64,000 nt of DNA, from NCBI GenBank assembly GCA_017536505.1, contig JAFXHG010000012.1:52541-116540 (forward strand). Reading direction: 5' to 3'. Every line of letters begins with the position of its first letter. The first letter of the stretch is position 1. The stretch is from Bacilli bacterium. Lineage in GTDB: Bacteria; Bacillota_I; Bacilli_A; RF39; UBA660. The position numbers were made by a program. Below, piece after piece: positions 39,001 to 45,000 of the stretch.

Positions 39001-42000
39001 TATAACGAATATTAAAAAAAGTTGGGATTTCCAACTTTTTTGTTTTTAATAATCACAATTTCCTGGAGTTCTTGGGAATGGTATAACATCTCTTATATTT
39101 TCAACTCCTGTTAAATATATAAGTAACCTTTCAAATCCCATACCAAATCCTGAATGAACACATCCACCAAATTTTCTTAAATTTAAATACCAATCTAATC
39201 CTTCAGTTTCCATATTAAGTTCATTCATGCGATTTACTAACTTATCATAATCTTCTTCTCTTTGAGATCCACCCATAAGTTCTCCTGCTCCTGGTACTTC
39301 AAGATCTACTGCAGCTACAGTTTCACCATCTTCATTTTGTTTCATATAGAATGCCTTAATATCTTTTGGCCAGTTTTTAATAAATACTGGTCCATTAAAG
39401 TATTCTGTAATATATTTTTCATGTTCTTTAGCTATATCTTCACCATATTCAGGTTTGAATTCCCAGTCTACTTTAGCTTCTTTTAAGATAGTTATTACAT
39501 CTTTATGATCAATTCTAGTAAATTCGCTATTAACTAGCTTTGTTAGTTTTTCTATTAAACCTTTTTCTACAAAACTATCAAAGAATTTCATTTCTTCAGG
39601 GCAATTTTCTAGTACATAATTTACTACATACTTAAGCATACCTTCCATTATATTCATATCTTGTTCTAAGTCACAGAATGCTATTTCAGGTTCAATCATC
39701 CAGAATTCGTTTGCATGTGTTTTTGTATTTGAGTTTTCAGCTCTAAATGTAGGTCCAAATGTATAAGTTTTCTTGTATGCCATAGCAAATGTTTCAGCTT
39801 GTAATTGACCACTTACTGTAAGTGCGGCTGGTTTATTAAAGAAATCTTTTGAATAATCAAGTTTTCCTTCTTTAGCTACTCTATCTAAATCAAGAGTTGT
39901 TACTTGGAACATTTCCCCTGCTCCTTCACAATCACTAGCTGTAATAAGTGGTGCATGGAAATATACATATCCATTATCTTGAAAATATTTATGAATTGCA
40001 TAAGCAGCAATACTTCTTACTCTAAATACTGCATTAAATAAATTAGTTCTTGGACGAAGATATGCGATTTCTCTTAAGAATTCACGTGTTGGTCTACCTT
40101 TAGCTTGTAGTGGATAATCATCGGGACATTCCCCTTCTAAAACTACGTCGCTTGCTTTTAATTCAAAATCTTGTTTACCTTGAGATTCTATTAAAGTTCC
40201 TTTTACAGTAACCGCAGAACCTATGTGCAATTTAGATATTTCATCAAAATTAGATAATTCATTATCATAAACTACTTGTAAATTTTTAAAATATGTTCCA
40301 TCACTAAAATCAATAAATCCAAATTCTTTTTGTTTTCTATGATTTTTTATCCATCCCTGGATTTCTATATCTTTATTTAAATAACTTTTATAATCTTTAT
40401 ATATATCTTTTAAATCTAACATATAATCATCTCTTTTCTATTTCTTCTTTTATTATATTTGCAGTAATACCTGGATTAGCTTGACCACGTGTAGCTTTCA
40501 TTACTTGACCTACAAAGAAGTCAAATGTATTTTTACCTTTTCTATGATCTTCTATTAAATCAGGATGCTCATCAAGTATTTTTACTACTATATCACGTAT
40601 TGTTTTATCATCAGTAATTTGTGTCATTCCAAGTTCTTTTACTACTTTAGAAGGTTCTTTATTTTCTTCTAAACATTTAACAAATACTTGTTTACTTTGT
40701 TTAGATGATATTTTACCACTATCAACCATTTCTATTAACTCAACTAACATTTTTGGAGTTAAATATATATCAGTAATTTTTAAATCATTTTTATTTAAGT
40801 GACCAAGTATTACACTTGTTATCCAGTTAGCACTACTTTTAGGATTACATCCCAAACTAATTGTTTCTTCAAAATAATCTGACACAGATTTATCTTTTAC
40901 AATTATTTCTGAATCATACCTAGATAAATTATATTCATTCATATATTTTTCTACTCTATCAAATTGTAACATAGGTATATCTTTTCTTATTTCTTCTATC
41001 CATGAGTCTTCTATTTTTATAGGTGGAATATTTGGTTCTATATAGTATTTGTAATCTACTGCGTCTACTTTAGAACGCATAGCAATAGTCTCCATTTTTT
41101 CTTCATCAAAACGTCTTGTTTCTTGAATTATTTCCCCACCATTTTCAAGTACTTCAGTTTGTCTTTTTATTTCAGATTCTATAGCTAATCTAACACTATT
41201 AAAACTATTTATATTTTTCATTTCAGTTCTAGTACCTAATGTTCCATCTTTAGAAAGAGAAATATTTACATCTACCCTCATTTGTCCTCTATCAGTACGT
41301 GCATCTGATACTCCTGTATATAAGAATATACCTTTTAAAGCTTCTAGGAAAGCAATAGCCTCATCTACTGAATGAATTGAAGGAGTAGTTACTGTTTCTA
41401 GAAGGGGCACACCTGCTCTATTATAATCTATTAAAGAATAATCAGAGAAATGTTCCATAGAAGCAGTATCTTCTTCTAAATGTATATCATGTATACCAAT
41501 TTTTTTATCTTCTCCATTTACATTAATCATTACATAACCATCTACCCCAACTGGTTTTTCCATTTGAGTAATTTGATAACCTTTTGGAAGGTCTGGGTAA
41601 TAATAATTTTTTCTATCAAACATAACTACATCAGGAGTTTTACAATTTAAGGCTAAAGCCATCATCAAAGATTTTCTAAATGCTTCTTTGTTTGCTACAG
41701 GTAATATTCCAGGAAGACCAATATCTACTGTATCTACATTTTCATTTGGATATTCAGAGTATGTATTTTTAGCACTTGAAAAGTTTTTTGAATTAGTTTT
41801 AACTTCACAGTGTACTTCAAGTCCAATTGTAACCTTATACATCATATTCCTCCTTTATTAATCCCTTATAACCTAATTTTTCTTCAATTTTATAGGCTAT
41901 ATTTAAAGTTTCAGCATCTTTAAATGGAGATCCTGTTATATTAATTCCAATAGGCATATTGTTAACAAATCCATTTGGTATTGTAATACTAGGGAAACCT

Positions 42001-45000
42001 CCAAAGTTAGCAATTGCCATATGATTTTCAAGAATTAAATATCTATCACTCATTCTATCTATAGAATCTTCAAACTTAGGAGCAATTCCACCACTTGCTG
42101 GAAGTATCATTCCATCATAACTTTTAAATAACTCGTTAATTTTATCTACTATAATTCTTCTTAATCTTTGAGCATTTTTAAATAATCTTTCTTGATTTTC
42201 TTTTTGAAGTATATAACTGCCTAATATAAATCTTCTTTTTATAAGTTCACTAAATCCTTTAGTTCTAGCATCAAACATAATATCATTTATGTTATTACCT
42301 TCACCTCTAGGGCCAAATATAATACCTGTTAGATTTGAATTATTACTTGTTGCTTCTGCACAACTAATAGTCATATAAGCTGGATATATAGCCTTTAATA
42401 ATTTTTCATCAATAGATACTTCTTCAACGATAAATCCTAATTCTTTGCAATTTTCAATTGTTTCTTTAAATTTAGTTAATACTTCTAAAGTTTCACTACC
42501 AGCATCTTTATACATTTCTAAATCTGTTATTTCTTTTATATAGAAAAGTTTTTTACCTTTTATATCATTTTCTAACACATCAGTATATTTTATATTTTCA
42601 TCAGGTAAACTTGTCATATCTCTTTCATCTTTACCTTTTAGGATATCAGTAACAATTGCAGCATCTTTAACACATCTTGTAAAACATCCTACATGATCTA
42701 AACTTGATGCGAAAGCGAATAATCCATATCTTGAAATTCTACCATATGTCGGTTTAAATCCTACTACTCCACCAAATGAAGCAGGTTTTCTTATAGAATC
42801 TCCAGTATCAGAGCCAATACTAAATGGAACAATACCTAAAGCAACACTAGAAGCAGATCCTGCACTTGATCCTCCTATTTGACGTTCTTTATCCCATGGA
42901 TTTCTGACTATGCCTGTATGGCCTGTTGTACCAGTTCCACCCATAGCTAGTTCATCTAAAACCGTTTTTCCTACTAAAACTGCTCCAGCTTCTTTAAGTT
43001 TTCTATAAACAGTTGCATCATATACTGGTACATAGTCTTTAAGGATATTTGAGGAAGATGTTGAAAGTATACCTTTAGTTGAAAAATTATCTTTTAAAGC
43101 ATATGGGATACCACTAATTAATGAATTAGAATCTTCTTTTTTATATTCATCAACTATAGTTACAAATGAATTATATTCCTCTTGATATTTATGAGCTTTT
43201 TTATTTGACTCATTAAATAATTCTTCACTAGTTATTTTAGAAGTATCTAAATCATTTCTTAAATCCATTATAGTTTTCATTATCCCACCACCTTTGGTAC
43301 TTTTATTTGATCTGCTTTTACTTCTTTACTATTTAAAGTTACTTCTTCGTTAGTTAAACAATCTTTGGCTTCGTCTTCTCTTAATGTTGCATGATAAATT
43401 ACATATGGAAAAGTCATAGGTTCAACATCCTCTATTCCTTCTATTTCTCCTATAAGTGCCATATGTTTTTCTACTGTTTCAAATTCTTCTAAAGTTCTAT
43501 CGTATCCTTCATCATCCATGTCAAACATTAATTTTGCTGCATAATCTTTTAATTTTTCTTTTGTTACCATAATATCCTCCTATAAACAAAAAACAAGTCT
43601 TAAGACTTGTTACTATTTTAAAATGGCGCCTCTTGTAGGCCTCGAACCTACGACCTAATGGTTAACAGCCGTGCGCTCTACCGACTGAGCTAAAGAGGCA
43701 TTTAAAATGGCGCCTGATGTAGGACTCGAACCTACGACCTAACGCTTAACAGCCGTGCGCTCTACCGACTGAGCTAATCAGGCATTTTAAATAGCAATTC
43801 GTCTCATTATTTGGGATGAATTATTTCCGCGGTGCCACCCAACTTGTCAAAAAAAATGACCACTTTACCGATTCTATCAAATCGTGTAATTTTTAACGGG
43901 TTACAACCGATTAACTTTACTTTATTCAAGTTAATAGTTCATGAGTGTTATTCATAATATACTTAATGTTAGTTCACACCTACCACTAACTCTCTATAAT
44001 CAGTTTATATTATTACTTCTCTCAATCAACACTTTTCCAAAAGGCTTATGTATTAATTATAGATTAGAAAATACTTTTTGTCAATAGAAAATTACTACTT
44101 TTTTATTATATGTAATAAAGAAGAATAATTTAATTATTTTAATACATTTGATTTATTTATATATTTAAGTTATAATTTTTTTAGGTGATTTTATGTATTC
44201 TATAAAAGAATCAATAGAAAATGTAATAATAATTAAAAAATCTAAATTTATTACCAAATTAATTAAAGTTAATACTAATAACGAAATTAATAATATTTTA
44301 GAAGAAACAAAAAAAGAGTTTAAAGACTCAACTCATATTTGTTATGCATATATAATTAATGGACAAGAAAAATGTGTAGATGATGGAGAACCATCTGGCA
44401 CTGCAGGTCTACCTATTCTAAATATATTAAAGAAAAATAATTTAACTAATGTGCTTGCTATAGTTATTAGATATTTTGGTGGTATAAAATTAGGAGCTGG
44501 AGGTCTTGTTAGAGCATACTCAAGCTCAGTAAATGACACTTTAAAATTAACTGATATTGTAGAACTAGAAGAAGGATATTTAGTAGAATTAGAATTTAGT
44601 TATGACCAAGTTAAATTAGTTGATTACATATTAAATGATAAAAATATAATAAACAAAGAATATAATGATAATATAATCTATAGTTTTTATTTAAACAAAG
44701 AAGAATTAAATTTTATTCCTGAACTTGAAAAAGTAGCAATTCATGTATCTATAAAAGATAAAGTCTTAATTGAAAAGAATTAAGACTTTTTAATATAAAT
44801 AAAAAGCAAGGAAATTATCCTTGCATTTGTTTAGCTACTTCGTCAGCAAAATTTTCTTCTCTTTTTTGCATTCCTTCACCTACTTCGAAACGAATCATAG
44901 TAGTAATAGTTCCACCATTATTCTTAACGAAATCAGCTACTGTTTCTTTATTTTCTGCTTTTACGAAAATTTGATTTTCTAAACATACTTCTTCATAATA

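Follow-up and report, generated by a model that had tools for sequence, protein, structure and literature searches.

What does a T-box riboswitch control when the first genes behind it encode the very tRNA that it senses? The question is raised by a locus on the minus strand of a 64,000-nucleotide (nt) stretch of DNA from an uncultured Bacilli bacterium (lineage RF39, UBA660; assembly GCA_017536505.1, contig JAFXHG010000012.1, positions 52,541 to 116,540), which is called the window here and whose numbering is used throughout. Along this strand a promoter is followed by a T-box leader, two tRNA-Asn(GUU) genes, a hairpin with a run of six U residues (U6), and the genes gatC-gatA-gatB-asnS. All of these elements had been listed in an earlier sequence-only reading, and all were recovered by Rfam, ARAGORN and NCBIfam searches together with promoter and terminator scans. 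On balance, we favor the view that a transcription-attenuating, tRNA-Asn-specific T-box probably controls one mixed transcript, which carries two tRNA-Asn precursors and gatC-gatA-gatB-asnS. What is observed directly is the set of parts in their order, the fit of codon to anticodon and of UGGC to G73-CCA, and the occurrence of the layout in ~85 species.

The leader was found with the Rfam T-box model RF00230 at 44038..43809, where it scores 141.4 bits (E = 1.7e-31; gathering score 93) and aligns over the full length of the model, positions 1-219. It comprises stem I, stem II, stem IIA/B, an 18-nt lineage-specific insertion, stem III and the antiterminator. The alignment of stem I spans model positions 1-100 and includes the GA motif, the specifier loop and the distal motif AGAGAG...GGUAGGUGUGA. 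Within the loop GAAUAACA, the covariance-model alignment and the sequence itself identify the specifier codon as AAC (Asn) at 43949..43947, with a purine (A) next to it. The same GAA-N-AAC-purine loop was also read in relatives wherever a crude loop search located the loop. Further downstream, the T-box sequence AAGUUGGGUGGCACCGCGG (43845..43827) carries the 7-nt UGGN-type bulge UGGCACC, with UGGC at 43837..43834. T-box sequence and antiterminator together were placed at 43811..43845 by the covariance-model alignment; helix A1 pairs 43842-43838 with 43815-43811, and helix A2 pairs 43830-43826 with 43820-43816. Owing to the A at 43817, one A2 pair cannot form in the window; it is intact in the public contigs and in 22/22 relatives. 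Overall, the antiterminator is nearly invariant, with 98.6% of cells paired among 22 related leaders.

Specifier loop (AAC) and antiterminator were thus both placed by the Rfam covariance model, and both contacts fit the tRNA that is encoded downstream: AAC pairs with the GUU anticodon, and UGGC is complementary to the G73-CCA end of both tRNAs. The proposal that the T-box is Asn-specific and fits the downstream tRNA-Asn genes is hence borne out. In a sister group of leaders, which is described below, the bulge reads UGGU and meets G73 via a G-U pair. As in other T-box systems, the target genes belong to the same amino acid, here two tRNA-Asn genes, gatCAB and asnS. Across the lineage, the part of the leader that senses the tRNA shows strong conservation, at 129-149 bits. 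The 18-nt insertion in the Rfam alignment between IIA/B and stem III (43870-43890, minus strand) forms a small hairpin, CGAUU...AAUCG, which is conserved in those relatives whose leaders resemble that of the window.

One genome per species was scanned, covering 185,579 species, with a pattern made of GGTGGNACCNCG, a gap of 38-68 nt and a generic tRNA D-arm and T-arm. This pattern left the anticodon free but needed GGTTCGA in the T-arm and TAGCTCAGT in the D-arm. A T-box preceding a tRNA gene was retrieved at 103 loci, and ~85 of them are tRNA-Asn(GUU) arrays of 1-6 copies. The hosts of these arrays are almost all uncultured Bacilli, 'Tenericutes' and Erysipelotrichaceae-type metagenome-assembled genomes and are mostly gut-associated. 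Sampled Asn loci scored above the Rfam T-box threshold in 13/13 cases (102-149 bits), and gatC-gatA-gatB follows the array wherever the downstream DNA is long enough to show it. What comes fourth is variable. Most relatives have a bacterial-type aspS (~580 aa, 714 bits) at the position of asnS in the window, while asnS itself was found in the window and at least six other loci. Exceptions are an archaeal-type aspS in locus L008 and the pair asnA and asnS in L103. In the latter, a close relative, asnA (aspartate--ammonia ligase, 339 bits) lies between gatB and asnS at 3332-4304, oriented from the T-box, and is predicted to add a third Asn route to the operon.

In view of the recurrent layout and the survey of the fourth gene, the combination of Asn T-box, tRNA-Asn array, gatCAB and class IIb synthetase is a conserved module, which in most species would encode every component of tRNA-dependent Asn-tRNA-Asn formation. 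The earlier suggestion of a dedicated Asn-tRNA supply operon is well supported by its recurrence in the ~85 species. In at least 35 species of the sister group (e.g., L047, L012, L005 and L099) the leader starts ~24 nt after tRNA-Ile(GAU) and tRNA-Glu(UUC), which leaves no room for a promoter; the T-box there is therefore an internal attenuator within a tRNA operon. A different order, tRNA-Asn, tRNA-Ile, tRNA-Glu, T-box and gatCAB, was seen in L160, where tRNA-Asn is thus outside T-box control. Among the other loci from the scan, L039 (3471-5127, Candidatus Onthoplasma sp.) contains a T-box whose specifier is UUC (Phe) and whose terminator is canonical, followed by tRNA-Phe(GAA) and a gene that matches the NCBIfam entry 'PheS-related mystery ligase SrmL' at 430 bits; L033, L052 and L082 resemble it. 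The theme of T-box, cognate tRNA and ligase is therefore not limited to Asn, and the placement of T-boxes before tRNA genes may extend beyond this amino acid.

Where does the controlled transcript begin and end in the window? Upstream of the leader lies a sigma-70-type promoter, TTGACA-17 nt-TATAAT (44084..44056), with 12/12 consensus matches, and its -35 and -10 hexamers are kept across 12 related loci. The tRNA-Asn(GUU) genes were located by ARAGORN and Rfam at 43783..43708 (gene 1, 66.4 bits; G1-C72, G73, encoded CCA) and 43699..43624 (gene 2, 62.0 bits; G73, encoded CCA, with an acceptor stem unlike that of gene 1). On the minus strand, no promoter-like site that could serve the tRNAs or gatC was detected between the leader and gatC. 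The sole -10-like hexamer in this interval, TAAAAT, is located upstream of the hairpin that follows the tRNAs and has no -35 element. A TTGACA at 43850-43845 was considered as a promoter and rejected; it has no usable -10, belongs to the conserved leader and reads ATGACA or ATGGCA in relatives. The spacer between the tRNAs and gatC measures 53 nt, and therefore has no room for a separate promoter. In line with the sequence-only reading, the tRNAs are thus placed inside the T-box-controlled transcript. At the far end, a two-way terminator hairpin with a 12-pair stem between an A-run and a U-run (39015..39041, terminator scan, -11.0 kcal/mol) closes both the asnS operon, for which it reads 39041..39015, and a convergent DUF1846 gene.

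Between the tRNA array and gatC, the terminator scan called an intrinsic-terminator-like hairpin, AACAAGUCUUAAGACUUGUU followed by U6, at 43611..43588. It has 8 pairs (3 G-C) and a loop of 4, is followed by UUUUGUUUAU, and has a folding energy of -7.7 kcal/mol, or -10.5 kcal/mol including an A/U extension. The gatC Shine-Dalgarno sequence GGAGGA (43580-43575) comes after the hairpin, and the distance from the U-run to the gatC start codon is only 17 nt. In every window-like relative, the last tRNA gene is followed by a hairpin with U6-7 ahead of the gatC ribosome-binding site, and other stem sequences occupy this position in more distant species. Across 70 tRNA-gatC spacers, a hairpin with at least U5 was present in 35/70 and a U-run directly after CCA in 21/70, such that 56/70 species have a post-array U-run with or without a hairpin. 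The hairpin most likely causes partial termination, so that tRNA would outnumber enzyme mRNA; it may also act as a 5' stabilizer of the processed gatC mRNA.

Alternatively, the locus might consist of two units, in which the T-box governs tRNA-Asn only, the hairpin with U6 ends the transcript fully and gatCAB-asnS is driven by an unrecognized promoter of its own. We regard such a division as very unlikely. It would be in agreement with the fact that hairpin and U6 pass the terminator scan, and with two loci, L043 (4325-5145) and L089 (1305-1857), in which two complete Asn T-boxes flank the array and the second one, between array and gatC, provides gatCAB with its own T-box. However, these second T-boxes have no promoter of their own in the spacer, and in the window the 17 nt in front of gatC, the lack of any promoter-like site and the position of TAAAAT, without a -35 and ahead of the hairpin, all argue against a separate gatCAB-asnS promoter.

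The sequence-only reading had stated that no canonical terminator lies between the T-box and the first tRNA, a claim that was not supported. RNAfold and register conservation reveal a competing terminator-type hairpin (43823-43795), which together with an interrupted U-tract, CUAUUUAAAAU, covers 43786..43823 on the minus strand. The hairpin takes up the 3' strand of the antiterminator and sits at the canonical position of a T-box terminator. Related leaders fall into two groups according to their terminator. The larger U-run group, which is the sister group mentioned above, has a textbook terminator, ACAGUUAU..AUAACUGUUUUUU, with energies from -15 to -24 kcal/mol and U6-7, which lies a few bases ahead of the first tRNA. 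The smaller group, to which the window belongs, is characterized by its own promoter, the UGGC bulge and a hairpin AAUUCGUC...GACGAAUU that uses the antiterminator 3' strand, at energies of about -3 to -14 kcal/mol. Among 22 close relatives, 80.7% of cells are paired in the register of the competing hairpin, in comparison to 33-53% in slid registers. When each leader was folded singly, a procedure that leans towards pairing, the CGUCC strand was paired in 33/34 window-like and ~38/40 U-run leaders, and the outer helix positions showed several pair types across all leaders. A second T-box in the window, in front of gltX (49564-49747, minus strand; specifier GAA, bulge UGGU), has a normal terminator of -13.8 kcal/mol with U7, and the organism therefore employs canonical T-box attenuation.

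The further idea that the termination decision has been displaced to the hairpin behind the tRNAs was rejected. This hairpin shares no sequence with the antiterminator and coexists with canonical T-box terminators in relatives, where the textbook terminators of the sister lineages precede the tRNAs; in L043 and L089 a second complete Asn T-box stands where the hairpin would be. It is therefore improbable as the seat of the T-box decision and is an element separate from the riboswitch. A broader non-canonical reading would have the T-box act at the post-tRNA hairpin or have the leader folds control pre-tRNA maturation, e.g., RNase P access. It could account for the retention of the competing hairpin in a lineage that has no proper U-tract behind it, and for the fact that this hairpin adjoins the tRNA 5' end, finishing 12 nt before position 1. 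Yet antiterminator and downstream hairpin have no common sequence, and sister lineages have canonical leader terminators in addition to the downstream hairpin, which makes this reading highly improbable. To our knowledge, no T-box acts at a distance or on RNA processing. Ordinary T-box attenuation before the tRNA genes is most likely both the ancestral and the present mechanism, with a terminator that is weak and probably leaky in the lineage of the window.

In the favored mechanism, transcription of the leader would begin at the strong consensus promoter, and the AAC specifier in stem I would read the GUU anticodon of tRNA-Asn. An uncharged tRNA would pair its G73-CCA end with the UGGC bulge and hold the antiterminator, so that RNA polymerase enters the tRNA genes. 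With charged tRNA, the antiterminator would instead give up its 3' strand to the 43823-43795 hairpin, and some transcripts would stop at the interrupted U-tract immediately ahead of tRNA gene 1. Since the terminator of the window lineage is weak, basal read-through is probably high, which would suit tRNA genes. Read-through RNA would be cut into mature tRNAs by the usual tRNA-processing enzymes, the hairpin with U6 after the array would halt a further fraction, such that tRNA exceeds enzyme mRNA, and the remaining transcripts would extend across gatCAB-asnS as far as the terminator at 39041-39015. Feedback from the tRNA-Asn charging state would thereby reach tRNA-Asn supply and the loading enzymes, namely AsnRS directly and GatCAB via Asp-tRNA-Asn made by an AspRS encoded elsewhere. 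The logic would be one of demand-coupled co-expression, in which tRNA and loading enzymes rise when the charged fraction falls. Termination efficiencies, tRNA processing and the substrate of GatCAB are the parts of this scheme that we infer.

Several observations weigh against it. The antiterminator of the window reaches only -1.7 kcal/mol (-7.1 kcal/mol with G restored at 43817) and the competing hairpin -4.0 kcal/mol in RNAfold (-9.8 kcal/mol when repaired), and the terminator scan did not call the hairpin at 43823-43795. Even in intact relatives of the window lineage the U-tract is interrupted, reading (A/G)CUAUUU. A covariation test on the 22 close relatives found no pair of the competing hairpin that had changed on both sides, and shuffled alignments gave the same result as the observed one. 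Changes in these relatives were one-sided only (U-A to U-G), and support for the hairpin therefore comes from conservation and register, not from covariation. On the side of the enzymes, U1-A72, which bacterial GatCAB is reported to prefer (PMC2811023), is absent, as all 177 linked tRNA-Asn copies have G1-C72, and the GatB encoded here keeps the segment of the 3_10 turn through which this pair is reportedly read. Finally, induction of a tRNA while it is uncharged amounts to positive feedback, which looks odd by itself.

The weakness of both switch structures goes back to the A at 43817, one of four positions (43817, 43745, 43659 and 43640) at which the window stands apart from five public contigs that are otherwise nearly identical (L226, L227/L001, L228, L229 and L230). 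From the promoter through the spacer, these four positions are the only ones at which L230 departs from the window; a further difference, at 44224, is in the neighboring gene, and the remaining 18 lie at 43261-43179, in gatA. Position 43817 corresponds to the G of CGUCCC, which is common to antiterminator and competing hairpin. Position 43745 (G; C in the public contigs) is position 39 of tRNA 1 and breaks the 31-39 pair, 43659 (A; G in the public contigs) is position 41 of tRNA 2 and breaks the 29-41 pair, and 43640 (G; T in the public contigs) replaces the otherwise invariant base at position 60 of tRNA 2. At all four of these positions, the 177 related tRNA copies or the switch helices of relatives show no variation, and three of the private bases break a pair. 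The tRNAs of the window score 62-66 bits in comparison to ~72 bits for their orthologues (71.8-72.5 versus 62.0 bits for gene 2).

These substitutions could mean that the switch has decayed or is always on in this copy, perhaps in the whole lineage; the T-box region would then amount to hardly more than a lengthy 5' leader ahead of the tRNA genes, with expression set by the promoter and the post-tRNA hairpin. The ~5.5 kcal/mol by which both switch structures are weakened, the low tRNA scores and the interrupted U-tract of the lineage would fit such a scenario, which we nonetheless judge unlikely. The bases are intact in the five public contigs and the damage is therefore private to this sequence; it may represent an assembly or sequence error, or real decay of this copy. 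Moreover, natural variants in L226, one loop change and one change from U-A to U-G, preserve the structure, and both the sensing part and, in 33/34 leaders, the competing hairpin have been kept across the lineage. Judged by these contigs, the population version of the locus is intact.

The two tRNA-Asn genes differ in their acceptor stems in 40/41 two-copy arrays and are mostly identical elsewhere; four-copy arrays often alternate two types. The difference may be functional, e.g., by avoiding mispairing of neighboring precursors, or may reflect an assembly bias in which identical copies collapse. In a scan of metagenomes, whose contigs are not assignable to genomes and whose tRNA-Asn pattern also matched ordinary U1-A72 genes, 37/38 G1-C72 tRNA-Asn copies with upstream DNA had no T-box.

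The protein genes were assigned by NCBIfam models. gatC (43570..43280) matches TIGR00135 at 48.0 bits (cutoff 47.1) and gatB (41845..40427) matches NF004012 at 579.6 bits (cutoff 338). gatA (43280..41835) is a divergent copy that scores 452.6 bits with TIGR00132, below the cutoff of 481.1, and its assignment rests on its place between gatC and gatB and on its NCBI name (MBR6690080.1). The last gene, asnS (asparagine--tRNA ligase, 40422..39046, MBR6690078.1), matches NF003037 at 616.6 bits (cutoff 414), and its product is a true AsnRS by NCBIfam; aspS is not among the genes of the window operon. The window GatB matches the GatB of Staphylococcus aureus at 449 bits. S. aureus GatCAB prefers U1-A72, which is read by a 3_10 turn in GatB, and archaeal enzymes do not have this turn (PMC2811023). 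A GatB without the turn would fit G1-C72 substrates, but this was ruled out, as the segment has the same length and shows no gap. Its residues differ, (E/D)A(R/D)(T/S)(D/K)(R/K) versus DVKMEE.

Which tRNA, then, does GatCAB serve? Possibly the GatCAB of this operon acts on Gln-tRNA-Gln and not on these tRNA-Asn, in which case AsnRS alone would charge tRNA-Asn and the linkage would reflect joint regulation of amide aminoacyl-tRNAs. The G1-C72 pair of all linked tRNA-Asn copies, the preference of the S. aureus enzyme for U1-A72 (PMC2811023), the equal length of the 3_10 segment and the presence of asnS in place of aspS point in this direction. We nevertheless hold this assignment to be rather doubtful; in most relatives aspS follows gatCAB under an Asn T-box, which with tRNA-Asn completes the component list of tRNA-dependent Asn formation, and the residues of the 3_10 segment differ. 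Amidation of Asp-tRNA-Asn by GatCAB, as we suppose in the favored mechanism, is suggested by gene linkage alone. The notion that AsnRS and GatCAB together provide dual routes to Asn-tRNA or Gln-tRNA is plausible from the gene content. How a bacterial GatCAB would handle G1-C72 tRNA-Asn is a question of enzymology raised by these loci.

A more far-reaching version of the favored mechanism can be put forward tentatively. If the T-box-controlled genes were the only tRNA-Asn genes of the cell, the loop would be closed, with uncharged tRNA-Asn licensing its own genes together with its loading partners. The terminator of the lineage would then have been detuned to a leaky, helper-dependent switch or to a non-terminating one, e.g., in pre-tRNA maturation. 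If true, it would be the first instance of a riboswitch that feeds the charging state of a specific tRNA back on its transcription.

Elsewhere in the window, gltX (47874-49523, minus strand) is followed after 40 nt by a tRNA-Glu(CUC, A73) gene (47758-47834, minus strand). This tRNA was considered as part of the gltX T-box operon, which is ruled out by its own promoter, TTAACA-17 nt-TATAAT, and terminator. Also on the minus strand are a full-length OLE RNA (3640-4247, 395 bits), a 6S RNA (60130-60309, 70 bits) and a gene for a ribosomal protein S2 of 347 aa (45749-46792) with a C-terminal extension of ~120 aa; the protein with the extension shows a sub-threshold match to a 'sunset domain variant' and has a Rho_N Pfam hit on record.

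How does this locus compare with known systems? With canonical T-boxes such as those of Bacillus subtilis tyrS and glyQS (RF00230), it shares the stem I specifier loop, the UGGN bulge and the competition of antiterminator and hairpin for the same 3' strand. It differs in that the directly regulated genes are the ligand's own tRNA genes, in that the terminator U-tract is interrupted in the window lineage, and in that a separate promoter for the leader is absent from at least 35 species of the sister group, where the leader lies inside a tRNA operon. Mixed operons of tRNA and mRNA are familiar from Escherichia coli, where thrU-tyrU-glyT-thrT-tufB yields several tRNAs and the mRNA of a translation factor from one promoter, which are separated by processing. 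The likeness is confined to tRNA genes and mRNA on one transcript, since the E. coli operon has no riboswitch and, unlike here, its tRNAs are not cognate to the downstream enzyme. Described T-box regulons comprise synthetases, biosynthetic genes and transporters, and one survey reported that amidotransferase genes in the genomes it covered were not preceded by T-boxes (PMC2494555, PMC7778990). In the full-text literature that we searched, the coverage of which is incomplete and thus no proof of novelty, no description of a T-box ahead of tRNA genes was found.

In Thermus thermophilus, tRNA-Asn, ND-AspRS and GatCAB form a complex termed the transamidosome (PMC2811023, citing Bailly 2007 and Blaise 2010). 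Read at the level of genes alone, most of the related operons encode all of its parts, i.e., tRNA-Asn, GatC, GatA, GatB and AspRS; for Thermus, no grouping of these genes under a single riboswitch is reported. A further difference of the window is that it encodes AsnRS in place of AspRS and a tRNA-Asn with G1-C72 instead of U1-A72. In most of the related species, a single riboswitch-controlled operon would hold all RNA and protein parts for the indirect route to Asn-tRNA-Asn.

The closest known system, as far as the citing papers describe it, is the 'NT-box' of Clostridium acetobutylicum, the T-box of an operon for ND-AspRS and GatCAB. T-box control of this tRNA-dependent transamidation operon has been published (Saad 2012, 2013; cited in PMC4206432, PMC4574755), which agrees with the statement of the sequence-only reading that such control of amidation genes is known in clostridia. 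Going by these accounts, both systems place an Asn-responsive T-box upstream of gatCAB and a class IIb synthetase gene and so couple the supply of Asn-tRNA-Asn to charging, the window having asnS in place of aspS. They differ in the tRNA-Asn genes, two in the window and 1-6 in relatives, that are located here between T-box and gatC and are therefore the first regulated products. The specifier of the NT-box reportedly has dual specificity, being composed of the sense codons GAA and AAC, which overlap by one base within GAAC. The loop GAAUAACA of the window, in comparison, offers a single codon, as the triplet that overlaps AAC is UAA; an GAAGAACA loop is present in L043 and L088. Taken together, these operons would provide a natural system in which to study how a bacterium adjusts the amount of one specific tRNA to that of its charging enzymes. 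Provisionally, T-box control of transamidation genes is the part that was known before, and the placement of the cognate tRNA genes first after the T-box, followed by the enzymes, is the part that is new here.

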